Shown one piece after another: positions 6,777 to 23,685 of a DNA stretch of 25,403 bases (position 1 is its first letter; every line of letters begins with the position of its first letter). The notes below the pieces were generated by a model. It had not been told where the DNA came from, did no database searches, and was given only the letters and a program-made list of their open reading frames with translations. Position numbers and translations under genes: made by a program. Origin of the DNA: Bacteroidota bacterium (lineage in GTDB: Bacteria > Bacillota > UBA4882 > UBA8346); assembly GCA_050261255.1 (NCBI GenBank), contig JBLNDC010000349.1, positions 1 through 25,403 on the forward strand, in the 5' to 3' direction.

Positions 6777-8396
6777 CTACTTTCGTAAATCAGTAGGCGT
6801 TACATTAAAATATTGACGGAAAACGCGGCCGAAATAGGCCGGGTCGGTATAACCAACCGCCATCGCAACCTCATAAACTTTTTGATTGCCTTCCTCCAAT
6901 AAACGCCGGGCAACTTCCATTTTCCGCCTGGTAACATATTCGGAGAAACTCTCCCCGGTTTGTTCCCGGAAGAGGCGGCTCAGATATGAAGGGCTCATGT
7001 AAACCCAATTTGCCGCCTTGGATAGGGTAATCGACTCAGCCAGATTTTGTTCGATATATTCTTTGACCTGAAGGATACAAGTCCGCTGAGAATTGTTATA
7101 TAACTTTTGAATGGCATGGCCCAGCCGGCCAAACTGGGTTTCCCACCACCGGGTCACAGCCTCGGCGCTTCCGCTCGGGCCGCCTTGCATCAGTAAAGCA
7201 TAATCTTCCGCCTCCATTACATCCCTAACTGTCAAACCGGCTCTTTGGGAGAGCCGGACCAAGGTCCCCGTTAACATCCAACCGGTTTCCCGTTGTTGAT
7301 CCGAAGTTTGGGAGGGGTCGTGTTTTGAAAGGGCTGATCCTAATAGATTTTCAAGGGTTGCCTTGATTAACCCGGCGGAGTTACCCCTTTCCAAGCTGGC
7401 CTTTAACTTCTCCTCATCAATCGGTAAAAATACCGGAAGGGGTTTTTCACCGGAGAAACAATTGGAATGAGCGACGATGGTTTCCACCCCGAACTGAGAA
7501 TGGTATTTCAGGGCTTGTTTTGCCTGCTCAAAGGAATCCCTAACTTGAGTTAGATTTGGCGCAATTCCTCCGATACCGATCACCAAAGCGCATGAAAGGT
7601 GTAGCCGGGCCTGGTCCAATATGGAACGGCCCATCCGGTTGGCCGACTCTATTAATTCCTTATTTGCGCAATCAACCGAGCCAAATAACACTGCACCAAC
7701 CCCGCCCCGCTCCAACCGGGCGGTAAATCCCCGATCTCCTATATCAGTTTGCGCGATCCGGTTCATCAGAAACCAGATTAGTTGCCGCTCCCGCTCATCA
7801 TAATTCAGGTAAAACCCGGTATTATCTTCAATTTCCAAAATCAAAGCAATGCAGGGCTGCTCCGGTTGGAACGGCAGTTTTAAAAAGCAAAGACGTTCCG
7901 GCAGGTCCTTTTCCTCAATCTCCCCGTATAACAAATCCCGGAGAAAATGTTCCCGTAAGATGGGGATGCTATTTTCCAACTGAGATTGGAATAATTTCCT
8001 AGTTGCTTCATCATTTCTTTTGTTAAGGAGCAGGTCGCGCTCTTTGAGTACCGCCTGTAAAATTTCCTCCGGGGGGGTGGGTTTGAGAATGTATCCCGTA
8101 ACTCCTAATTCAAGACATTTTTTCGCGTAGGCGAACTCATCATAACCGCTGATCACCAAAACTCTAGTATGTGGGTTCAGGTTCAAAGCGGAACGGGCCA
8201 ATTCGATCCCGTCCATGCCGGGCATCCTGATATCGGTGAGGATGATTTCGGGTCTTTCATCTTGAACCATCCGCCAAGCCTCGCTCCCGTCAACGGCCGG
8301 ACCAACGAGGCAAATCTCATGTTGTTCCCATGGGATCTCCTGCGCCAGCCACTCGCGGGAACCGGCTTCATCGTCAGCTATTAGAAGTTTAAACAT
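6777..8396 (-). CDS. YesN-type response regulator (REC + AraC HTH)
   Basis: REC motifs IADDE, ILTDIRMPGMDG, ISGYDEF and ILKP. C-terminal MSPSYLSRLFRE...GYTDPAYFGRVFRQYFNVTP. ATG 8396 has SD AGGAGG. Confidence 0.93.
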   Translation of the reverse strand: MFKLLIADDEAGSREWLAQEIPWEQHEICLVGPAVDGSEAWRMVQDERPEIILTDIRMPGMDGIELARSALNLNPHTRVLVISGYDEFAYAKKCLELGVTGYILKPTPPEEILQAVLKERDLLLNKRNDEATRKLFQSQLENSIPILREHFLRDLLYGEIEEKDLPERLCFLKLPFQPEQPCIALILEIEDNTGFYLNYDERERQLIWFLMNRIAQTDIGDRGFTARLERGGVGAVLFGSVDCANKELIESANRMGRSILDQARLHLSCALVIGIGGIAPNLTQVRDSFEQAKQALKYHSQFGVETIVAHSNCFSGEKPLPVFLPIDEEKLKASLERGNSAGLIKATLENLLGSALSKHDPSQTSDQQRETGWMLTGTLVRLSQRAGLTVRDVMEAEDYALLMQGGPSGSAEAVTRWWETQFGRLGHAIQKLYNNSQRTCILQVKEYIEQNLAESITLSKAANWVYMSPSYLSRLFREQTGESFSEYVTRRKMEVARRLLEEGNQKVYEVAMAVGYTDPAYFGRVFRQYFNVTPTDLRK

Positions 8397-8425
8397 CTTA
8401 ACCACCTCCTTGATAATCCCCTAAT

Positions 8426-8544
8426 TTAAGGAATAGCCTAATTGTTGACTTAAGCTTTGGCTCACAATATGTGATAAATACATCTGGGCTTATCATTATA
8501 TAATAGTGGCCAAAGGGTTTATTAAGGTAATTTTGCAATTTCCT
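8426..8544. repeat. ~119-bp self-complementary element, copy 1 (kinase/regulator gap)
   Basis: Direct repeat of 10393-10511 (20 differences in about 120 columns by hand alignment). Nested stems CTTTGGC/GCCAAAG and TGATAA/TTATCA. Confidence 0.85.
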
Positions 8545-10366
8545 AATTAACAGGATTGGCGGGCCAACGAATATCAACTATCAGTCCTCCGCCCGGGTTG
8601 GGTGAGAGCGAGACTCCCCATTTTTCACCATAAGCCAGGATCAACCTCCGGTGCGCATTAGCTAAACCATGGGAACTGGGAACCGTCGGATCGGCTAAAG
8701 CTTCCTTCACCGTTCGGAGTTGCTCTTCACTTAGACCGACGCCATTATCGACCACCTTAAAATGAATGGCATCGCCTTCATGCATCCCGGTAATTTCAAG
8801 CATTCCACTACCAGGTTTGGGCTCAAGGCCATGAACGAATGCGTTCTCCACCACCGGTTGGAGTAATAGTTTGGGTATTTGATATTTCAGGATCGCGGGC
8901 GCAACCTGGATTTCCACTGTAATCCGGTCGCCATGGCGCAATCTTTGCAATTCCAGATAGTGATTTAACTGTTCCAGGGCTTCCGAGATAGTGACGATGG
9001 ACGGTCCCCGGCCCAGGCTTAAACGAAACAGCTTTGACAAATTAAGGATGGCCCGGGAGCCTTCTTTGCCGTCCCCGCTTAAGACTAACCGATAGATACA
9101 ATCAAGAGTATTATAAAGAAAATGCGGGTTAATCTGCGCTTGTAAAAATTCCAACTCCGATTGGCGACGGGCCAGCCTTTCAACATAAGCCACCTGAATC
9201 TGTTGTTCCAGTTGTTCGGCGGTAGCGTTAAATTGCTGGAATAGTTCTCCGAATTCATCCTGGCGATTCTCGGAGATTCTGGTATTCAACTTACCGGCGC
9301 CGAGTTGATCCATGGCTTGGCCCAGCTGATGCACGGGATGGACTACATCGTGCAATAGAAACCAAGTTAATAGTAGCGCGGCCGCGATTGCAACCAGTAA
9401 ACTCAACCAAATAACATAAGAGGCCTCCTGATTTACCGGTCCATAAACCTGATCCAGGGGTTTCTCCTTGATATAAATAAACCCCATCGCTCCCCGAAGA
9501 TACATACCTAACACTTTAATCCCCTTGTCATTGGTATAAATTAAAGAACCGTACGGAGTATCGGGGCCTTCGGCTATCGCTTTGGCCAAGAGAGGTTTTT
9601 TTTGGGAATTATCGGAGAAGAGCTTATACTTCTCGGGGCTATGCCCGCCGGAGGTGGGAAGCGCCAACAACAGGCCGTTGGGGTCATAAAGTTCACCGTA
9701 TAATCCGTCAATGGGAAAAGTAGAACCGGTGGGAGTTTCGGATAAATCAGCGGAGCAATCCATTCCAATGATTACGGTTTCGCTGGTTTCGTTCGAAACC
9801 CAATAAATCGGCATCGTGGCCGGTCCGGGAGTCAACCGGACGTCTCCGATAAAACTGCGGGTAATCAAGATATTATTATTGGCAAAGGATGTTCCCAGCG
9901 GTTCGGTGGGCTCGATCCCTTGTAAAACCTGCCGCCACCAGGGGCGCTGCTTCAAATCGGCCACCGTCCAGTTTTGACCGGAACAGATGAATTGGCCGGT
10001 TTTGGGATAGATTAAATAGGCGGCCTGAATATACGGCAGGCCGTTAATTTGAGGCAGGTGGAGGATGGCCAGGTAGTTGGCGATCATTCGGCGAATCGCC
10101 GCATTGTCTTTATTGCGCAAGATAAAGGTCTGGGTAGCCAAATTACTGGTGATTTCAGCCCTACGCGCCAACTCGCCTAACACTTTTCCTTCGGATAAAT
10201 GCAATGAACTTAACATGCTATCGCGGGTGGCATCGGTAATCCGGTTTTTCAACCGGTTAGCCAATAATAGCGCGGTCAATGAGGCATACAAAAAGACCAC
10301 GAGGAACACGACTAGTAATATTTTAATTTGCAGGCTGGCTGGTTGCAGCTTTAAAATGCGGTTCAT
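8543..10366 (-). CDS. YesM-type sensor histidine kinase (2 TM, HAMP, His_kinase, HATPase_c)
   Basis: H-box LQAQINPHFLYNTLD, LLQPVVENAFVHG, DNGVG and HGLANAHRRL. TM segments near the N-terminus and before the HAMP domain. Confidence 0.93.
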   Translation of the reverse strand: MNRILKLQPASLQIKILLVVFLVVFLYASLTALLLANRLKNRITDATRDSMLSSLHLSEGKVLGELARRAEITSNLATQTFILRNKDNAAIRRMIANYLAILHLPQINGLPYIQAAYLIYPKTGQFICSGQNWTVADLKQRPWWRQVLQGIEPTEPLGTSFANNNILITRSFIGDVRLTPGPATMPIYWVSNETSETVIIGMDCSADLSETPTGSTFPIDGLYGELYDPNGLLLALPTSGGHSPEKYKLFSDNSQKKPLLAKAIAEGPDTPYGSLIYTNDKGIKVLGMYLRGAMGFIYIKEKPLDQVYGPVNQEASYVIWLSLLVAIAAALLLTWFLLHDVVHPVHQLGQAMDQLGAGKLNTRISENRQDEFGELFQQFNATAEQLEQQIQVAYVERLARRQSELEFLQAQINPHFLYNTLDCIYRLVLSGDGKEGSRAILNLSKLFRLSLGRGPSIVTISEALEQLNHYLELQRLRHGDRITVEIQVAPAILKYQIPKLLLQPVVENAFVHGLEPKPGSGMLEITGMHEGDAIHFKVVDNGVGLSEEQLRTVKEALADPTVPSSHGLANAHRRLILAYGEKWGVSLSPNPGGGLIVDIRWPANPVN

Positions 10367-14376: not shown

Positions 14377-15726
14377 ATGGATAATTTTTTACTGGTTCTA
14401 ATTGGTGTAATCTGCGGTCTAGCTTTAAGCACCGGATTTTTTGCCGGGATGGTGCTTATCTTCTGGCCGAAACTCCTTCCCCAAAGGGAGCTGCTGATTG
14501 AGTGGCTCACCCTACTCCGGAAAATCTCCTGGCACGAATATTTTGAAGCCAACCTCCGGGCTCAAACCGGCAAACCCCTTGACCGTCCTTACGGAACGAA
14601 GCGGGGGATCTTGAGCTTGGAAAAATTGCAGTTTAATCCGGTCTATCTAGCTAAAAAACCCATCAATAATTATACCGAAGTCGATACTTCCGTCGTTTTA
14701 GGGCCCCTGGCTAAAAAACCGCTTCAGCTCAAGATCCCGATTCTGATTGGAGGAATGGCCTATGGGAGCGGTTATAGTTTAGCTGCCAAAATCGCTTTAG
14801 CCAAAGCTGCGACTATGGCCGGAACCGCAGCCGACTCAGGTAACGGCCCCTTTTTGCATGAGGAGCGTTTCTTTGCCGAAAAATTTATTCTGCAGTTTCC
14901 CCGCGGATTCTGGAACCGGACCGAAACTATCCTAAAACAAGCCGATATGATTGAGATCGCTTTGGGCCACTCAGCCCGGGGTTCCGCTCCGGTAAGGATT
15001 AACGGCAAAAAACTAACCCCGGAGGTAGCCGCAAGGTACGGCTCCATTCCCGGACTGGACGTATTGATGGAAGCCAGGCTCCCTGAAGTTGAAACCTTTG
15101 AGCAGTGGAAATATTTGATTCAATATCTGAAAGAACTCACCGGAGGCGTTCCCATCGGAGTTAAGTTCGGTGCCAGCCATTCCCTGGAGCAAGAGCTAGA
15201 GATCTATATCAAAGGCGGCATTGATGTCTTGACCTTTGACGCAACCGAAGGTGGCACTCATGGCGGAGCCCCAATATTAATGGATGATTCGGGAGTGCCC
15301 CTGCTCCCGGCTTTATGCCGTGCGGCCAAATTTATCCGTGACCGAGGATTAAAAAATAAGGTCTCTTTGATAGTCGGGGGCGGTTTGGTTACTCCGGGCG
15401 ACTTTGCTAAATGCTTGGCTTTAGGGGCCGATGCGGTAATCATTGGGACTATTACGGCGTTAGCCCAGTCTCATACCCAAACTACCAAAACCATACCTTG
15501 GGAACCACCCACCGGTCTGCTTTACAACGATGGTAAAGAAAAGCAGAAATATAATCCAGATCAAGGAGCAAAACATTTAAACCACTTTTTCCAAAGTTGC
15601 GTTGCGGAGATGAAGTTGTTGGCCGGCGCATTGGGGAAAAGTAGCTTAAGGGAACTGGAACCCGGCGACCTGGTGACTGGAGACCCGCTTTATGCGAAAA
15701 TTACCGGGGTAGAGTATCTGTTATGA
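14377..15726 (+). CDS. Stand-alone FMN-binding glutamate synthase family protein with N-terminal TM helix
   Basis: Motifs IPILIGGMAYGS, MIEIALG, GVPIGVKFGA, DATEGGTHG and VGGGLVTPGDFAKCLALGADAVIIG. Confidence 0.88.
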   Translation: MDNFLLVLIGVICGLALSTGFFAGMVLIFWPKLLPQRELLIEWLTLLRKISWHEYFEANLRAQTGKPLDRPYGTKRGILSLEKLQFNPVYLAKKPINNYTEVDTSVVLGPLAKKPLQLKIPILIGGMAYGSGYSLAAKIALAKAATMAGTAADSGNGPFLHEERFFAEKFILQFPRGFWNRTETILKQADMIEIALGHSARGSAPVRINGKKLTPEVAARYGSIPGLDVLMEARLPEVETFEQWKYLIQYLKELTGGVPIGVKFGASHSLEQELEIYIKGGIDVLTFDATEGGTHGGAPILMDDSGVPLLPALCRAAKFIRDRGLKNKVSLIVGGGLVTPGDFAKCLALGADAVIIGTITALAQSHTQTTKTIPWEPPTGLLYNDGKEKQKYNPDQGAKHLNHFFQSCVAEMKLLAGALGKSSLRELEPGDLVTGDPLYAKITGVEYLL

Positions 15727-15955
15727 TCCTTTCCGAAATACATCTGTCACACGTTGAAAGTCGCCCTTTTAAAGACTCAAACTCGGAAGCTAAAGACCCA
15801 AACTCCGCCCAACAGATTATCTGATTAGTTTATCCCTTCTCAAGTGCATTTCTTTCATATTCCATTGTCTGATTTCGAAGCAACCTCATATCATGAACCG
15901 AGACCGGCAATCTCTGAAAAACCGGTTTCAATTCAATGTAATGGAGGAAGCCCAG

Positions 15956-16657
15956 ATGTCTGTGAATGAACCCCAAATTCCCTGCCCGGGAGGAACTGTG
16001 TACACAATCAGGCCGGGAGATGCCTTTTATCTTTTGGCAAGGCGTTTTAATACAACTATCGCCGCTCTCCAAGCGGCTAATCCCGGTGTAGATCCGACCA
16101 ACTTACGTCTCGGCCAGCAGATTTGCATCCCGGTTCCGAGCGTGCCGGGCCCTTGCCCCGGAGGCTTTTTCTATACTGTCCTGGCTGGAGAAACTTTTTT
16201 CAGCCTAGCCCAGCGTTACGGTATTTCCGTAGCAGCGCTGCTGGCCGCCAATCCTGGTGTCGACCCCAACCGGTTACAGGTCGGACAACGGATCTGTATT
16301 CCGGCTCCGCCCCGGCCGGAACCTTGCCCGGGAACACTCTATACTATTCAACCGGGTGATACCTTCATCGGAATCGCGCGCCGTTTCGGCTATACACTTG
16401 ACGCTCTGTTGGCGATTAACCCAGGGGTTGACCCCGATCGCCTCCGGATTGGCCAACAAATTTGCCTGCCGCCTTCCCCCGGAGGAGGTCCCTTCCCTTG
16501 CTTTGGCGGGACCATTTACCGGGTTCAAGCGGGAGAAACCTTGTATTCAATCGCCCGGCGATTCGGCTTGACCCTACAGCAATTGTTAAACGCTAATCCC
16601 GATATAACCAACCCCAATGCGATCCAAATCGGCCAGCCGGTTTGCATCCCAAGATAA
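15956..16657 (+). CDS. Four-LysM-domain protein, SafA/ExsA-like spore-associated
   Basis: Four repeats of CP-x-G-x-x-Y-T/R-I/V-x-x-G-D/E-T...NP-x-x-D/N-P-x-x-L/I-x-x-GQ-x-I/V-C-I/L-P. ATG 15956 has SD GGAGG. No signal peptide. Confidence 0.9.
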   Translation: MSVNEPQIPCPGGTVYTIRPGDAFYLLARRFNTTIAALQAANPGVDPTNLRLGQQICIPVPSVPGPCPGGFFYTVLAGETFFSLAQRYGISVAALLAANPGVDPNRLQVGQRICIPAPPRPEPCPGTLYTIQPGDTFIGIARRFGYTLDALLAINPGVDPDRLRIGQQICLPPSPGGGPFPCFGGTIYRVQAGETLYSIARRFGLTLQQLLNANPDITNPNAIQIGQPVCIPR

Positions 16658-16702: not shown

Positions 16703-17126
16703 CATTTCAGCGCTGAGATGTTGCTTTAGGAAATCAAATTTACATCTTAACTCAGCTCTGTTATTAATAATAGTTAATTTGATACCCCTATTTTCTTCTC
16801 GCGCAGAGACCCCCCTCTGCTACTACTATTTTTATAGCTCTAAAATCATTTTACTGTATAAGGCGCGAAGGCACCGAGAAGTTTAGAAACATATTTCAAT
16901 CAACCTTTCTTAAGAACATAGCAAAATATATAGTAATTACCCCTGATGCACCTATCGATATATTGTTAGCCAAAGCTAAAATGAGAATAGTGCAATTTCT
17001 TAACTTAATTTTGATACTAAAAAATCACTCTAAAAACGATCGTAAATCATGTTCCATTTTAAAAAATAAAACATACATTGGATTAAGGGGAAGTCCCGCT
17101 AACCCCGGTGGAAAGGGGGTGAAACC

Positions 17127-17204
17127 ATGGCTGATTCCAAAGCCGCTTTCTTTGGTTTTCCGTGGTTCTTATTTCTATTCTTGATACCTTTATTCGGCAT
17201 TTAA
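17127..17204 (+). CDS. 25-aa hydrophobic peptide MADSKAAFFGFPWFLFLFLIPLFGI (not in ORF track)
   Basis: SD AAAGGGGGTG ahead of the ATG. Followed by a strong terminator. Resembles the 20.5-21.4 kb peptides (MAD start, FFG, P-W-x-L-F-L). Confidence 0.7.
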   Translation: MADSKAAFFGFPWFLFLFLIPLFGI

Positions 17205-17515: not shown

Positions 17516-18859
17516 ATGACGCCCAAAAACTTTTGGGTGCGGAAACTCTCGCTGCCACTTCGGACTGATGAAGTTTTCGGTAAGTCCGACTCTCCACGCC
17601 GGTTAATCGTGGAGGTCATGAACAACCGAAGCTTGGATCGGATAGCAGCGTTGATTGACTCCAACCAAGGGAAAATCCATAAAGAGATCCGGATGATCCC
17701 GTCGCTGGTTGCGGATTTGCCTTTCTCGTCCCTTGAAGAACTGGCGCGTTCCAGATATGTTTATAAAATTTGGCAGGACTCTCCGGTATATACTCAGCTA
17801 GACGTGGCGGTACCCTCCTCCGGCGGTCTAATCCCATACCAGGCGGGGCTGACCGGTAAAGGTGTCGTAGTTGCGGTTTTGGATACAGGAATCGATCCTC
17901 ACGAGGACTTGACTGAGCCGACCAATCGGATTTTGGCTTGGAAAGACTTAGTGAACCAAAAGAATTCCCCATATGACGATAACGGGCATGGCACTCATGT
18001 AGCCGGGATTATCGCCGGCAATGGCCGTTACTCCAATGGAAAATACCGGGGAATTGCCCCTGAGGCTATGCTGGTCGGGGTAAAAATTTTAGATGAAGAA
18101 GGCAGCGGCAGGTTATCTGATGTTATCTCCGGTATTGAATGGTGCATTAATAGTTTGTCGGCCTTGAATATCAGGGCGATCAATCTCTCGATCGGATCCG
18201 AAGTCCAGGAATCTTATCGGGCTGATCCGTTATGTCGGATAACTTCCGTAGCTTGGGAAAAAGGGATTACCGTATGCGCCGCCGCGGGAAACAGCGGACC
18301 AAGATTTGGAACTATCAACACGCCCGGCATCAATCCGGTAATTATAACCGTAGGTAATCTTGATGATCAAAACACCCTCACCAACATCGATGATATCCTC
18401 GCACCTAGTTCCAGCAGGGGGCCGACCCCGGACAGACTGATTAAGCCGGACTTAGTAGCGCCCGGCACTAATATTACTTCGCTAAAAGTTGGAGGTGGCT
18501 ATACCACTCTGAGCGGTACTTCAATGGCGACTCCATTGGTAAGCGGCGCGGTTGCCCTAATCCTCCAAAAGTGGTCTAACCTTAAACCAGATCAGCTCAA
18601 AACTCTTTTAATGCAGAGCGCCCGGAATGTTGGCGTCGGGCCTAATCTACAGGGAGCAGGAGCTTTAGATCTAGAGGCTATTTTTAAGCATGAAATTGAG
18701 TCACCAAAACCAAAAAAAAACGAACCCGAGCCAAGTCTCGGTGGAATCTTACTTAAAACCATTCTCAAAATGGTAGTCTCTAATCTTTCCTCCGGTCAAC
18801 AGTTTAAAGGGACTGATCTCCTAAAAATGGCCTTAAATTTCATGGGAAATTTAAAATGA
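17516..18859 (+). CDS. S8 subtilase (AprX-like), paralogue 1
   Basis: Triad VLDTG / NGHGTHVAG / SGTSMATP and oxyanion AAGNSG. I9-like propeptide, no signal peptide. Confidence 0.93.
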   Translation: MTPKNFWVRKLSLPLRTDEVFGKSDSPRRLIVEVMNNRSLDRIAALIDSNQGKIHKEIRMIPSLVADLPFSSLEELARSRYVYKIWQDSPVYTQLDVAVPSSGGLIPYQAGLTGKGVVVAVLDTGIDPHEDLTEPTNRILAWKDLVNQKNSPYDDNGHGTHVAGIIAGNGRYSNGKYRGIAPEAMLVGVKILDEEGSGRLSDVISGIEWCINSLSALNIRAINLSIGSEVQESYRADPLCRITSVAWEKGITVCAAAGNSGPRFGTINTPGINPVIITVGNLDDQNTLTNIDDILAPSSSRGPTPDRLIKPDLVAPGTNITSLKVGGGYTTLSGTSMATPLVSGAVALILQKWSNLKPDQLKTLLMQSARNVGVGPNLQGAGALDLEAIFKHEIESPKPKKNEPEPSLGGILLKTILKMVVSNLSSGQQFKGTDLLKMALNFMGNLK

Positions 18860-19113: not shown

Positions 19114-20376
19114 TTGCCTCAGGCCTTATTGCATAAACTCTGCCCGGAGTTGCGCAAAACGGAGTATAACGAGAACCCAGAACAACCTCGCCGCATAATT
19201 GTGGAAATGAATCAATCGGTTACCGGGCGTGTCACCGATTTTGTCAATCACTCTCAGGGCAAAGTCCACCGGAAAGTGAATGTTTTTCCAGGGTTGGTCG
19301 TGGAATTGCCCTTCTCCCATATTCAAGAGATGACTTGGTTCCCTTATATCAAAAAAATATGGCATGACACCCAAGTTCAAGCCTTGATGGATATCGCCGC
19401 CCCGACAGTGGGCGGATATACCGCTCAAGAATCCGGCTTTACAGGTAAAGATATGGTAGCGGCGGTGATCGATACCGGGATCTACCCCCATACCGACTTG
19501 ATCTACCCGGAAAACCGGATCATCGGTTGGTATGATTTGGTCAATGAAAGAGATAACCCCTATGACGACAATGGGCACGGTACTCACATCGCCGGGATTA
19601 TTGCCGGAAACGGTGCTATCTCTCGAGGCAGGTTTCGTGGGATGGCGCCCGAAGCGAAACTAGTAGGAGTCAAAGCCCTTGATCGCAATGGTTCGGGAAA
19701 TACGTCCGATGTGATCGCCGCTATTGAGTGGTGTATTAAAAACCGGGAGCAATATAAGATCAATGCGATTAACCTCTCTTTAGGTTCAATTGCTCAGGAC
19801 TCTTGCCGGAACGATCCCCTCTGCCGGGCGGCTACTGCTGCCTGGAAAAACGGGATTGTGGTTTGTGTCGCTGCCGGTAATGACGGACCGGAAGCAGGAA
19901 CAATCAATACTCCGGGAATCAATTCATTCGTAATTACAGTTGGCAATCTCGATGACAACGCCACCATCGAGTGGGACGACGATCAATTAAACCCATCCTC
20001 TAGTCGTGGCCCGACCATCGACAATATCAACAAACCTGATCTCTTAGCGCCGGGAACTACAATTAATTCATTGCGGGTTCCTCGCGGTTACCGCGCCTTC
20101 AGCGGTACCTCGATGGCTACCGGGGTAGTTACTGGCGCGGTCCTCCAAATACTCCAGAAAAACCCGGACTTAGCCCCGGATGAAGTCAAACGTCTCTTGG
20201 TAAACCATACCCGCTTTCTGGATCTTGACACTAACCAACAGGGAGCAGGAGTAATTAATCTCAACGGCATTTTTGAAGAAGCCAAACAAAACCGATTAGA
20301 AAACAATATATTCACCCGGGCATTACCGCTGACTATGTTCGCTTTAGCTCCTTTTGCCTTTAGTATCCTATTGTAA
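19114..20376 (+). CDS. S8 subtilase (AprX-like), paralogue 2
   Basis: Triad VIDTG / NGHGTHIAG / SGTSMAT and AAGNDG. TTG start with SD GGAGGTG. Hydrophobic C-terminal tail. Confidence 0.93.
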   Translation: MPQALLHKLCPELRKTEYNENPEQPRRIIVEMNQSVTGRVTDFVNHSQGKVHRKVNVFPGLVVELPFSHIQEMTWFPYIKKIWHDTQVQALMDIAAPTVGGYTAQESGFTGKDMVAAVIDTGIYPHTDLIYPENRIIGWYDLVNERDNPYDDNGHGTHIAGIIAGNGAISRGRFRGMAPEAKLVGVKALDRNGSGNTSDVIAAIEWCIKNREQYKINAINLSLGSIAQDSCRNDPLCRAATAAWKNGIVVCVAAGNDGPEAGTINTPGINSFVITVGNLDDNATIEWDDDQLNPSSSRGPTIDNINKPDLLAPGTTINSLRVPRGYRAFSGTSMATGVVTGAVLQILQKNPDLAPDEVKRLLVNHTRFLDLDTNQQGAGVINLNGIFEEAKQNRLENNIFTRALPLTMFALAPFAFSILL

Positions 20377-20422: not shown

Positions 20423-20535
20423 TCTGCTTAAGTAACGACTTTGATAAAAGGTTTATAGCCTAATACCATCAAAAGTTAAAACACATAAAATGTAACAGAA
20501 AGGACGGTTAAGTCCGCATAATAAAAGGAGTGAAA

Positions 20536-20652
20536 ATGATGGCTGATAATGTAAAATCATTATTTGACGGTATTTTTGGTTGTTGTAACCCATTTTGGCT
20601 TTTCTTAATTCTAATCTTGTTAACAGCCGGTTGTTGCGGCGGCTTCCGGTAA
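20536..20652 (+). CDS. 38-aa Cys-rich hydrophobic peptide 1, MMADNVKSLFDGIFGCCNPFWLFLILILLTAGCCGGFR
   Basis: SD AAAGGAGTG. Paralogous to the next two ORFs with many synonymous differences. The start could be 20539. Confidence 0.88.
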   Translation: MMADNVKSLFDGIFGCCNPFWLFLILILLTAGCCGGFR

Positions 20653-20750
20653 AATGTCACAGTAAAACGAAACCCATTCTCTTTTACTCTTAAATATAAA
20701 TCTGGGCAGAAACGACTAGCAATGTCATTAATTTTAAGGAGTGAAAACCA

Positions 20751-20861
20751 ATGGCCGACAATTGTTCCAGGGGCTTACTTGGCGGCATCTTCGGTTGTTG
20801 CAACCCGTTTTGGCTGTTTTTAATCTTAATATTACTAACAGCCGGTTGTTGCGGTCGGTAG
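20751..20861 (+). CDS. 36-aa Cys-rich hydrophobic peptide 2, MADNCSRGLLGGIFGCCNPFWLFLILILLTAGCCGR
   Basis: SD AAGGAGTG. Identical protein core with divergent codons. Confidence 0.88.
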   Translation: MADNCSRGLLGGIFGCCNPFWLFLILILLTAGCCGR

Positions 20862-20994
20862 TTCAACCTGCTGAAGGTGCTGAAGAAATGTTTCGGTAAA
20901 CATCAATTAGCATAATATCAACACTTGAGGAATCTCATATAATATAAAGGAGGACGAACGAAGTCCTTGACTATAGTCAAAGGAGTGATTAAGT

Positions 20995-21111
20995 ATGGCG
21001 GATAACCCAATCAAATCCATGTTTGACGGTTTCTTTGGCTGCTGCAATCCGTTTTGGTTATTCCTAATTCTGATACTCTTAGTAGCCGGTTGTTGCGGTG
21101 GCGGTTTCTAA
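20995..21111 (+). CDS. 38-aa Cys-rich hydrophobic peptide 3, MADNPIKSMFDGFFGCCNPFWLFLILILLVAGCCGGGF
   Basis: SD AAAGGAGTG. Same core. Followed by a terminator. Confidence 0.88.
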   Translation: MADNPIKSMFDGFFGCCNPFWLFLILILLVAGCCGGGF

Positions 21112-21137
21112 TAGATAATAAACCCCAAGTAAGTATC

Positions 21138-21160
21138 AGCCCGGTTAAACCGGGCTTTTT
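21138..21160 (+). terminator. Intrinsic terminator after peptide 3
   Basis: AGCCCGG-TTAAA-CCGGGCT followed by T run. Confidence 0.8.
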
Positions 21161-21276
21161 ATCTTATATCTTTTAGGCTTCTTCAAAGTTCTTTCGTCAC
21201 ATTCCGTTTAGCGTATCAAAATCATATTATAAAACCAAGAAAGAACCCTTATCCTGAACTGAAGGAGGTGTAAAGA

Positions 21277-21381
21277 ATGTCTGATGCCAAATTCGACGGA
21301 ATCTTCGGCAACAATTGTTTGTGGATCATCTTGTTGATACTTCTCTTCTGTTGCTTATGCGGTGGTGGCGGATTGTTCTAA
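21277..21381 (+). CDS. 34-aa Cys-rich hydrophobic peptide 4, MSDAKFDGIFGNNCLWIILLILLFCCLCGGGGLF
   Basis: SD AAGGAGGTG. Shares FDGIFG, W-I/L-x-L-x-I-L-L, CC and a Gly-rich end with peptides 1-3. Has its own terminator. Confidence 0.85.
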   Translation: MSDAKFDGIFGNNCLWIILLILLFCCLCGGGGLF

Positions 21382-21411
21382 GCGATAGGATGAAGTTATA
21401 AATAAGGACCC

Positions 21412-21435
21412 AGCCCGGATTACCGGGCTTTTTTT
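21412..21435 (+). terminator. Intrinsic terminator after peptide 4
   Basis: AGCCCGG-ATTA-CCGGGCT followed by T run; same stem as 21138-21160. Confidence 0.8.
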
Positions 21436-21663
21436 ATTGATTGAGGGCGCAAAGTAAAACGTGTTCTCCAAGTCCGCTGCGTTTTCGTCCTTGGATTAAC
21501 CAACAAGCTGCTTTTATCCTTCGATTCCCCAGAAAACCGGGGTGAAAGATAATAGTCAAATGGAACAAAGGATAAAAAAAGCGATACAAAATGCTTTTCT
21601 CAGCGAAACAGGGGGATTATACTCCATATAATGAACTGACCGGTAAATATGGAGGTGATTCCT

Positions 21664-23076
21664 TTGGCCCAAAATAGGATTTCGGGAAAACTCTCTCCCC
21701 TACTCCAGCAGGTCGAACATTCCAAAGATCAATTATGCAAAGTGATTGTTGAACTATCAAGCGGGCGGACGGACCAGATCGACGCTTTGGTCCGGGCCAA
21801 TAACGGAAAAATTCATCACAAAATTGGAATAGTGCCCTCTCTGGTAGTGGAACTTCCCTATGATTCAATCCCGGAACTTGCTAAATCCAGGCAAGTTAAG
21901 CGGATTTGGTATGACGCCCAGGTTAAACAATTACTAAATACCGTAGTCCCAACAGTCTGCGGATTTGGGGTAAAAAAAAGCAGTTTTACAGGGAAAAAGA
22001 TAACTATCGCCGTTCTTGATACCGGAGTCTATCCGCATCACGATTTGGTTTACCCTGTTAACAGGATAATCGCCTGGGCTGACTTTATTAACTTTCAAAA
22101 AGCCCCATACGATGATAATGGTCACGGGACTCATGTGGCTGGAATAATAGCCGGAAATGGCGCCAGCTCATTCGGGAAATATTGCGGAATTGCACCCGAG
22201 GCCAACTTGGCCATAGTCAAGGTCTTGGATAAAAACGGCAATGGCTCTTTATCGGCCATCATCGAAGGGATCGATTGGTGTATTAAAAATAAAGCCGAGT
22301 ATAATATTAAAATTATTAATCTATCTTTTGGCGCGGTTGCCCAGGATTCATATAGGACCGACTTATTATGCCGGGCCACATCTATAGCTTGGAAAAACGG
22401 AATCGTTGTCTGCACCGCCGCGGGTAATGACGGTCCTAGGGCCGGAACAATCAATACTCCGGGGATTAATCCAAAAGTTATTACCGTCGGCAACTTAGAC
22501 CATCGGAGAACGGTTATTTTTGATGATGATCGAGTTCATCCTACTTCCAGCCGGGGACCGACCCGGGACAAAATAAAAAAGCCTGATTTACTTGCGCCTG
22601 GTACTAATATTATTTCGTTAAGGCCGGGGGGTGGATATCGGTCTCTGACTGGAACTTCAATGGCCGCATCAATAGTTTCGGGAGCAATTGCTTTGATTTT
22701 GGAGAAAAATCCAAAACTCCGGCCGGATCAAGTCAAACGCATGCTGCTCAAAAATGCCCGGGAAATAGGGCTAGACCCATATGAGCAGGGAGCAGGAGTT
22801 ATTAATCTTCAAAAAATTTTCGCCGGTTCTGGTCGGGCGCCCCGAACTCAAATTCTAGGGGTCGAACCATTAACGGAAAAGGCCCAATTAAGGGCTTGCT
22901 ACATTGATAATTATCTTGAATACAATAATTTGCTCAACCCTTATTTATTATTCTTGATCTTAATTTTATTAATTTCAGCTTCCCCCGGTTATTATTACAG
23001 CGCGAATCCCTATTTTCTCTTTTTGATTTTGCTCCTCTTAATCCTTACTAATGAACCGAGGCTGTTATACAAGTAG
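21664..23076 (+). CDS. S8 subtilase (AprX-like), paralogue 3, with double hydrophobic C-terminal tail
   Basis: Triad VLDTG / NGHGTHVAG / TGTSMAAS. GGAGGTG at 21651 is the SD for TTG 21664 (the track start 21649 overlaps it). Tail NPYLLFLILILL ... NPYFLFLILLLLIL. Confidence 0.92.
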   Translation: MAQNRISGKLSPLLQQVEHSKDQLCKVIVELSSGRTDQIDALVRANNGKIHHKIGIVPSLVVELPYDSIPELAKSRQVKRIWYDAQVKQLLNTVVPTVCGFGVKKSSFTGKKITIAVLDTGVYPHHDLVYPVNRIIAWADFINFQKAPYDDNGHGTHVAGIIAGNGASSFGKYCGIAPEANLAIVKVLDKNGNGSLSAIIEGIDWCIKNKAEYNIKIINLSFGAVAQDSYRTDLLCRATSIAWKNGIVVCTAAGNDGPRAGTINTPGINPKVITVGNLDHRRTVIFDDDRVHPTSSRGPTRDKIKKPDLLAPGTNIISLRPGGGYRSLTGTSMAASIVSGAIALILEKNPKLRPDQVKRMLLKNAREIGLDPYEQGAGVINLQKIFAGSGRAPRTQILGVEPLTEKAQLRACYIDNYLEYNNLLNPYLLFLILILLISASPGYYYSANPYFLFLILLLLILTNEPRLLYK

Positions 23077-23200: not shown

Positions 23201-23329
23201 TTGGCGATCCGGGTAGATATCGAGCACGATATCCTATTAATCATTACCACTGTTTTATTTATTCTCTTTGCCACCGGCCTGGCGGTACCTTCGGAAATTC
23301 CGACCACGCCGATAATTTTACCACCATAA
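23201..23329 (+). CDS. 42-aa single-TM peptide MAIRVDIEHDILLIITTVLFILFATGLAVPSEIPTTPIILPP (not in ORF track)
   Basis: SD GGGAGGG ahead of TTG. One clear TM segment. The stop abuts the SD (AAGGAG) of the next gene. Confidence 0.7.
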   Translation: MAIRVDIEHDILLIITTVLFILFATGLAVPSEIPTTPIILPP

Positions 23330-23343
23330 AAGGAGAGATACCC

Positions 23344-23685
23344 GTGTTTTCTACGGAGGATTTGGAGAAGATCAAAGAACAAATCTACCAGTATAAAGTA
23401 GGAGCAACTAGAAACAATATCAGAAATGAAAAAGAAAAACCTGGAGATAATAAAAATAACACCAAGTGCGGACCTAGCCTAAATCCACCGGAGATTTTAG
23501 TCATCGCCGGGTTATTAAGCGGCGCCTTGGAAGTAAGCTCAGTCTCGTTAAGTAGAGATCAAATAGTCCAGGTGTCGCTTGAAGGTTCCCTCCGGCGCCA
23601 AACTCAGTTGGAGCAGGTTATGGAACAAGTCGGTAAATGCACCTTTGAAGAGGTAATGCGGGCAATGCTAAAGGGCATGAATTAA
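23344..23685 (+). CDS. Conserved hypothetical protein, probably sporulation-associated
   Basis: GTG with SD AAAGGAG. The C-terminal half PPEILVIAGLLSGALEV...LEGSLRRQTQLEQVM...FEEVMRAM resembles small clostridial hypothetical proteins (recall). The spore link is inferred from context. Confidence 0.75.
   Translation: MFSTEDLEKIKEQIYQYKVGATRNNIRNEKEKPGDNKNNTKCGPSLNPPEILVIAGLLSGALEVSSVSLSRDQIVQVSLEGSLRRQTQLEQVMEQVGKCTFEEVMRAMLKGMN

Follow-up and report, generated by a model that had tools for sequence, protein, structure and literature searches.

Organization of the locus

The stretch of DNA analyzed here, referred to as the window, spans 25,403 nucleotides from the 3.49 Mb assembly of an uncultured, spore-forming soil bacterium. 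The sequencing runs that hold this DNA best are soil metagenomes, which do not count as independent because they may be the source sample; runs with a small share were kept out of the habitat reading. The window harbors a module, encoded on the forward strand, of S8 family serine proteases (subtilases) and tiny hydrophobic peptides. Protease 1 (17516..18859) and protease 2 (19114..20376) are paralogous S8 proteins; the tail of the former is amphipathic and non-hydrophobic, and the latter has one hydrophobic C-terminal segment (ALPLTMFALAPFAFSILL). Protease 3 (21664..23076), the subject of this analysis, is a signal-less S8 subtilase with a C-terminal tail that contains two copies of the peptide core.

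The peptide genes lie between proteases 2 and 3. Peptide A1 (20536..20652, with a probable start at ATG 20539) consists of a MAD head followed by CC-NPFWLFLILILL-TAGCC, the core being encoded at 20587-20622. Peptides A2 (20751..20861; core 20802-20837) and A3 (20995..21111; core 21046-21081) carry the identical core, which in all three A-type peptides sits between Cys pairs, and a terminator (21138-21156) follows A3. Peptide B (21277..21381), with a NNCLWIILLILLF core and a Cys-rich end, also has a terminator after it (21412-21429). A conserved N-terminal head, MAD...FDGxFG, precedes the Cys-flanked core in all peptides. A Cys-free family member of 25 residues is encoded upstream of protease 1 (17127..17204) with a CATACATT box at -55.

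Directly 3' of protease 3 lies the gene for a conserved 42-residue, single-helix mini-protein (23201..23329), and downstream of it one for a 113-residue protein without a family match (23344-23685). Both come after protease 3 in most loci, where the usual order is two S8 genes, A-type peptides, one B-type peptide, the tailed S8 gene, the 42-residue mini-protein and the 113-residue protein; the last is also present in locus L004 (6819-7214). Each of the nine tail-bearing loci examined has between two and four peptide genes immediately ahead of protease 3. The wider context is one of sporulation, with a LysM protein that resembles SafA encoded upstream and spoVAC/D/Eb lying on the downstream side. 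The genes ahead of the module in the window encode a membrane-anchored protein with a glutamate-synthase-like FMN domain (14377-15726) and the SafA-type protein with four LysM repeats (15893-16657), and both are also found ahead of the module in locus L082.

Protease 3 and its catalytic domain

The longest reading frame of protease 3 starts at an ATG at 21649 that has no ribosome site and would give a protein of 475 residues. The protein is probably 470 residues long, because the TTG start codon at 21664 follows a ribosome-binding site, GGAGGTGAT, as it does in the orthologs. Residue numbers refer by default to the 470-residue form, and some of the domain and hydropathy figures refer to the 475-residue frame.

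The Peptidase_S8 catalytic domain (Pfam PF00082; 21991..22797) covers residues 115-383 of the 475-residue frame, with an E-value of 3.5e-53 and a score of 181.2 bits against a gathering score of 21.8. Membership of the S8 family is evident from the catalytic triad D119/H154/S332 and the oxyanion residue N255, all invariant across 15 orthologs. The PDB structures 3afg and 9ues align to residues 111-389 of the 475-residue frame and to nothing beyond. No N-terminal signal peptide was detected in protease 3, the maximum KD(10) over the first 45 residues being 1.4. Downstream of the catalytic serine the protein continues for 135 residues, including the double repeat.

Anatomy of the tail

The region that follows the catalytic domain (22816..22935) comprises a variable linker (residues 385-407) and a semi-conserved pre-repeat segment, LKACYIxNYLxY (residues 408-424), with pairwise identities among orthologs of 0.30 and 0.51, respectively. 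Tail repeat 1, NPYLLFLILILL (residues 425-436; 22936..22971; identity 0.94), and tail repeat 2, NPYFLFLILLLL (residues 448-459; 23005..23040; identity 0.89), are joined by an 11-residue, uncharged, Tyr-rich loop, ISASPGYYYSA (22972..23004; identity 0.45). The protein ends with ILTNEPRLLYK (23041..23073), followed by the stop codon. Because the orthologs read ILSFxPxL at this position, a proline appears to bound the helix at the end of the tail. The consensus of the unit common to tail and peptides is NP[YF]x[LF]FLIL[IV]LLIL[SG]F, then 0-1 residue and a proline, a pattern that seems to describe a hydrophobic helix of fixed length held between prolines.

The initial annotation of this DNA, made from the sequence alone, had scored the two repeats as 10/12 and 9/12 matches to the peptide core. 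Comparison of the reading frame with the peptide cores bears out both counts, since NPFWLFLILILL is the exact core of all three peptides encoded upstream. The tail is likewise in frame with the catalytic domain, as had been proposed, a single reading frame running through the S8 domain to the stop at 23076. The proposed absence of flanking Cys pairs from the tail holds in the window, and some orthologs have a single Cys after repeat 2. The linker between the repeats had been given as SASPGYYYSA; it is indeed short, but its first residue, an isoleucine, had been missed.

A sequence unit common to tail and peptides

A match between two segments rich in leucine and isoleucine may be of little value if such segments are frequent, and the initial annotation had raised the worry that the motif is too common in helices of this kind to be informative. 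A census of 12-mers across the whole assembly (6,925,966 six-frame windows) detected three non-self windows at least 9/12 identical to the peptide core, of which two are the tail repeats and the third, on contig C579, contains a lysine. The octamer LFLIL[ILV]LL occurs five times in the genome, in every case at the locus of protease 3 and the peptides. This worry is thus refuted, as both the census and the octamer point to the one locus despite the presence in the genome of 154 runs of at least nine Leu, Ile, Val or Phe residues.

Profile methods agree with the census. A profile built from tails alone retrieves the three A-type peptides with per-genome E-values of 2.8e-5 to 5.5e-4, and an hhalign comparison of 21 peptides with 15 tails gives a probability of 95.6% and an E-value of 1e-8; composition may inflate such statistics on Leu/Ile-rich segments, and the 12-mer census is independent of them. 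The tail profile also retrieves similar small reading frames in five other genera. Together with the conservation among orthologs described below, these comparisons establish that tail and peptides share one specific, selected sequence unit, and that the observation is correct and not due to chance.

The coupling between the tail and NP-type peptides is not strict: two genera (g7 and g12) have peptides with the NP core and no tail, and in the second tail-bearing genus (g4) the peptides lack NP and cysteines while the tail retains NP. Scans of the peptides, of the relatives of the tail and of the 113-residue neighbor against Pfam, NCBIfam and PF09680 gave nothing meaningful. In the ESM Atlas, peptide A1 matched unnamed clusters alone, at 0.82-0.85, which is below the useful level. 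A word-index protein search with A1 returned a single relative, of 40 residues, a result attributable to the fact that genes of this kind are rarely called.

Conservation and age of the tail

A protein search with the C-terminal region identified 14 further proteins of 464-478 residues, all of which have both repeats, with N, P and LFLILILL invariant in their tails. In six-frame translations of 31 species genomes of the same order, the double tail is present in all six genomes of the genus of the window (g1) and in both genomes of a second genus (g4); a search across 58 genomes of the class yielded no additional ones. All orthologs therefore keep the tail in frame, the point that the initial annotation had singled out for checking, and the recurrence of the same in-frame tail in independent assemblies and in two genera contradicts the objection it had foreseen, that orthologs stop before the tail because of recent read-through or an assembly error.

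Mean pairwise identity among orthologs is 0.94 and 0.89 in the two repeats, higher than in the catalytic domain (0.82) and far above the loop (0.45) and the linker (0.30). When the two genera are compared, identity over the whole protein is 40%, and the repeats agree at 18 of 24 positions. The codons of the five core copies in the window agree no more than codon usage predicts, and synonymous sites are saturated. From the orthologs, the identities and the saturated codons it follows that the tail is old and under selection at the protein level. Lost-stop read-through, a frameshift, mis-assembly or a chance match of Leu/Ile-rich helices has a negligible probability, given the tails in independent assemblies of two genera and an empirical chance of about one unrelated window per 6.9 million.

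Peptide-gene fusion by loss of a stop codon had been put forward as one origin of the tail. A modular or fusion origin is plausible, because the double repeat also exists in free-standing genes of 60-69 residues, but a recent loss of the stop codon is contradicted by the chance-level codon agreement and by the presence of the tail in two genera.

Free-standing repeats and divergent proteases

Queried with the tail profile, a set of 1.8 billion representative proteins gave only nine matches; these include free-standing mini-proteins of 69 and 64 residues with two repeats and of 57-83 residues with one. Free-standing double repeats encoded by genes of 60-69 residues are present in L095, P0018 and P0020, the 60-residue protein of L095 being encoded next to groES. 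In locus L098 (4599-5499), a 69-residue double repeat occupies the position of protease 3, between a peptide gene and the 42-residue gene. Three S8 fragments lie on the opposite strand of that locus (7730-9097), beyond a patatin gene. Locus L102 (442-982) contains a 91-residue prodomain fragment and a 70-residue reading frame with a single NPYLLFLILILL unit at its end, and the 113-residue gene comes next; the arrangement looks like protease 3 minus its catalytic domain. In L099 (GCA_002207765.1; 5001-6301), an array of four Cys-free peptides of 26-57 residues with the core FALFLILILLLF is accompanied by a 64-residue NPF double repeat and a 79-residue relative, with no protease nearby; this array is part of a wider superfamily of LFLILILL micro-proteins.

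Some S8 members have diverged at catalytic positions. In the tail-bearing S8 protein of the second genus (L103:8665-10086), the AAGND oxyanion motif is gone and the catalytic domain is some 27 residues shorter; the third S8 protein of L004 (11244-12677) has lost the GTSMA serine motif. Some members of the family may be pseudoproteases.

The genes downstream of the module vary. In L081 (8467-9369) and L103 (11043-11930), the gene immediately downstream of the tailed protease encodes a patatin-like phospholipase, and such a gene also follows the free-standing double repeat in L098 (5660-6538). These three loci belong to different lineages, and the genus of the window has spoVAC/D/Eb and DUF1657 at this place. 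A functional link to spoVA was dropped, because spoVAC/D/Eb follow the module in genus g1 only, with the patatin gene elsewhere.

Promoters and hints of expression

A promoter-like element, AC-N-CCATATAATG (21608..21633), stands ahead of protease 3. The same box, AC...CCATATAAT, is conserved in loci L001, L082 and L083. Peptide A1 has a -10-like box, CATAAAAT, at 20484..20491, with matching boxes for A3 (20936-20943), peptide B (21223-21230) and the 25-residue peptide (17072-17079). The general form of the box, CATAnnnT, is found at a fixed distance, -51 to -63 from the start codon, ahead of 20 of the 24 peptide genes in seven loci, against a background of 0.75 per kb, and it also precedes protease 3; GTCA[CT]ATT often lies about 20 nt further upstream. 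The box shared by the peptides and protease 3 is missing before proteases 1 and 2, the 42-residue gene, the 113-residue gene and spoVAC. From the consensus of B. subtilis, a different organism from that of the window, we take the box to be of the mother-cell sigma-E/K type, and expression in the mother cell would be the probable timing. The mother-cell regulons of B. subtilis have been described (PMC517825).

Two contigs are weak hints of expression, with the proviso that contigs from RNA libraries cannot prove transcription. A soil metatranscriptome contig of 154 nt (X16) is identical to 21253-21406, the gene of peptide B; it begins shortly ahead of the ribosome site and ends a little short of the terminator. 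The other, a contig of 2092 nt from an RNA library (X15), is about 91% identical to 20518-22614, a span that takes in the peptides and protease 3.

Predicted topology of the tail

The tail is hydrophobic enough for membrane insertion. KD(19) reaches 2.05 at residues 425-434 and 448-456 of the 475-residue frame, and the two repeats are the only windows above a Kyte-Doolittle value of 1.6 outside the catalytic core, in which the buried helix at the catalytic serine is the other strongly hydrophobic part of protease 3. Charges are present on both flanks of the putative hairpin and the loop is uncharged. With C-terminal hydrophobic helices and no signal peptide, protease 3 has the features of the hairpin or tail-anchored class of proteins. 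A membrane anchor is disfavored by the length of the hydrophobic run in each repeat, only about 13-15 residues, which is short for spanning a bilayer.

An AlphaFold2 model of full-length protease 3, from an alignment of 15 sequences, has a mean pLDDT of 45 and places low-confidence helices at residues 426-439 and 449-462 of the tail; from this weak model the secondary structure of the tail alone was used, with caution. A complex prediction of the tail (residues 400-475) with peptide A1 scored 0.00, with a fold pLDDT below 50, and carries no weight in either direction on binding.

Proposed function of the tail

The reading we favor, with a rough probability of 0.55, is that the tail anchors protease 3 in the membrane through two helices built from the unit of the peptides, and places the enzyme in their membrane site by packing of like with like. 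Two short, proline-capped and very hydrophobic helices, with the uncharged Tyr-rich loop between them, would form a C-terminal helical hairpin, each helix being a copy of the membrane unit of the MAD...LFLILILL peptides. Because protease 3 has a flexible linker and no signal peptide, the hairpin would attach to a membrane a subtilase that is otherwise cytoplasmic, with the catalytic domain on the cytoplasmic side at the end of a linker of 25-40 residues. The enzyme would then share the membrane site of the peptides, probably one that surrounds the developing spore, a placement suggested by the shared mother-cell-type box and by a core conserved far beyond what a generic anchor would require. 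Packing of like with like, and thus contact with the peptides, is favored because peptides and tails retain the same octamer in genera whose flanking sequences differ. The initial annotation had likewise proposed an address motif that would co-assemble the protease with the peptides. If this packing is true, protease 3 would be a clear bacterial case of an enzyme targeted by mimicry of its micro-protein partner.

A more specific form of this idea, possible and held only tentatively, is that the peptides form a sequence-specific oligomer in a spore-associated membrane, which protease 3 joins through its two built-in subunit copies; the free-standing double repeats would then serve as an adaptor without the enzyme. 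Such subunit mimicry would amount to both a new mode of enzyme targeting in bacteria and a new family of structural spore micro-proteins.

The best surviving alternative, rather doubtful in our view, is that the tail serves purely as a generic membrane anchor, its likeness to the peptides reflecting one duplicated ancestral unit under the same constraints of insertion and lipid environment, with no physical interaction. Paralogs and distant relatives do have unrelated hydrophobic tails, and the phyletic uncoupling of the tail from NP-type peptides fits this account. Generic anchors, however, tolerate most hydrophobic substitutions, whereas LFLILILL is invariant in the orthologs and better kept than the active-site domain, and the octamer is common to peptides and tails in genera with different flanks.

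It is unlikely that the tail is instead a peptide precursor, cut within the variable linker by protease 3 itself or by a paralog, which would make protease 3 both enzyme and cargo. The linker ahead of the tail is long and poorly conserved, as such processing would allow, and cleavage would release a two-unit mini-protein resembling the free-standing genes of 60-69 residues, one of which holds the same syntenic position in L098. The tail-only reading frame of L102, which outlives the lost catalytic domain, fits as well. The linker, however, has no conserved cleavage motif that could be seen, and the standalone forms may be mere decay products.

An improbable option is that the proteases act on the peptides as substrates or are regulated by them, and that the tail acts as a pseudo-substrate, a docking segment or a competitor, for example with the MAD...FDGxFG head being trimmed at the membrane. 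S8 leader peptidases of the LanP type are known to trim precursors; the peptides all have a conserved head ahead of the Cys-flanked core, and S8 and peptide genes are interleaved in every locus. The tail, however, has neither the head nor the Cys pairs, and a conserved Ser/Thr partner for thioether formation is missing. RiPP-type modification enzyme genes, including LanB/C/M and radical SAM enzymes, were not found among the conserved neighbors in five syntenic loci, nor were such enzymes found among the window reading frames scanned.

Returning to the anchor made from the peptides' unit, its significance lies in the two groups of proteins that it connects. Tiny hydrophobic proteins of sporulation are widespread, most of them lack annotation and their functions are obscure; nor do we know of roles for the signal-less subtilases of spore-formers. 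The presence of the peptide core as the enzyme's own tail ties both groups together and suggests a hypothesis of the same membrane, the same assembly and possibly an enzyme-substrate relationship. NP[YF]xLFLILILL offers a short motif for finding and studying the system.

Relation to known systems

No description of a module of peptides and tailed subtilase was found in the literature searched (YjcZ, AprX and sporulation, tail-anchored subtilisin, small sporulation proteins). One of the closest parallels to the peptides is YjcZ (PF09680 YjcZ_2; TIGR01732), whose gene in B. subtilis encodes a tiny hydrophobic protein and belongs to the sigma-K regulon (PMC517825). Both kinds of protein have 25-45 residues, a variable Gly-rich head, a very hydrophobic Leu/Ile/Phe core, multiple paralogs and a distribution in spore-formers. 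A promoter box of similar type, assigned by consensus, is seen in the window and hints at late mother-cell expression of its peptides too. What sets the peptide family of the window apart from YjcZ is its NP cap, its Cys pairs and its MAD...FDG head. The YjcZ models (PF09680 and TIGR01732) gave no matches to the peptides or the tail at E-values up to 0.1-10, and the best E-value in a six-frame scan of the whole genome was 3.3, on another contig. To our knowledge, fusion of a YjcZ-like unit to an enzyme has not been reported. A small-protein family of C. difficile (PMC13724677) was set aside as different, being species-specific and of 58 residues.

Among tiny mother-cell peptides, SpoVM binds the membrane protease FtsH (PMC10730256). 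SpoVM and CmpA of B. subtilis act at the forespore membrane, and SpoVM with FtsH provides a functional precedent for a mother-cell peptide of tiny size that meets a membrane protease. SpoVM is an amphipathic surface helix, whereas the window peptides would have a buried hydrophobic core, and they show no sequence similarity to it. Its partner FtsH belongs to another class of protease and does not copy the peptide, as protease 3 does.

Mycosins, the S8 proteases of type VII secretion systems, are held in the membrane by one C-terminal helix, and a mycosin model (TIGR03921) is the best NCBIfam match of protease 3, at 140.1 bits, well below its cut-off of 278.75. Mycosins have an N-terminal signal peptide, a single helix and an ESX context, in contrast with the two putative helices and sporulation context of protease 3; because protease 3 has no N-terminal signal peptide, its topology would be opposite to theirs. 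The Csp germination proteases were rejected, as their models scored below the cut-offs (NF040809, 101 bits against 1250; NF040808, 74 against 675). A sorting signal of the LPXTG or PEP-CTERM type was also rejected, given the lack of a signal peptide, the duplication of the motif and an end that is not a basic cluster. Protease 3 resembles tail- or hairpin-anchored proteins in its cytoplasmic domain, flexible linker, C-terminal hydrophobic helices and lack of a signal peptide, but unlike generic tail anchors its putative anchor has a strictly conserved sequence that is common to separately encoded micro-proteins.

The enzyme itself is closest to the signal-less subtilases of Bacillota, a group that we take to be AprX-like. 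Protease 3 shares with AprX-like S8 proteins a prodomain-like N-terminal region and the absence of a signal peptide, and its catalytic domain is 42-51% identical to homologs from Bacillaceae, Paenibacillaceae and Clostridia. Most relatives stop about 57-70 residues after the catalytic serine without a hydrophobic tail, in contrast with the 135 residues of protease 3. Distant AprX-like subtilases from Tissierellia (L011, L021, L022, L038, L057 and L064) end with a short hydrophobic stretch followed by D-S/K-K/R-I/V, which may be a separate instance of a C-terminal membrane tail within this family of enzymes.
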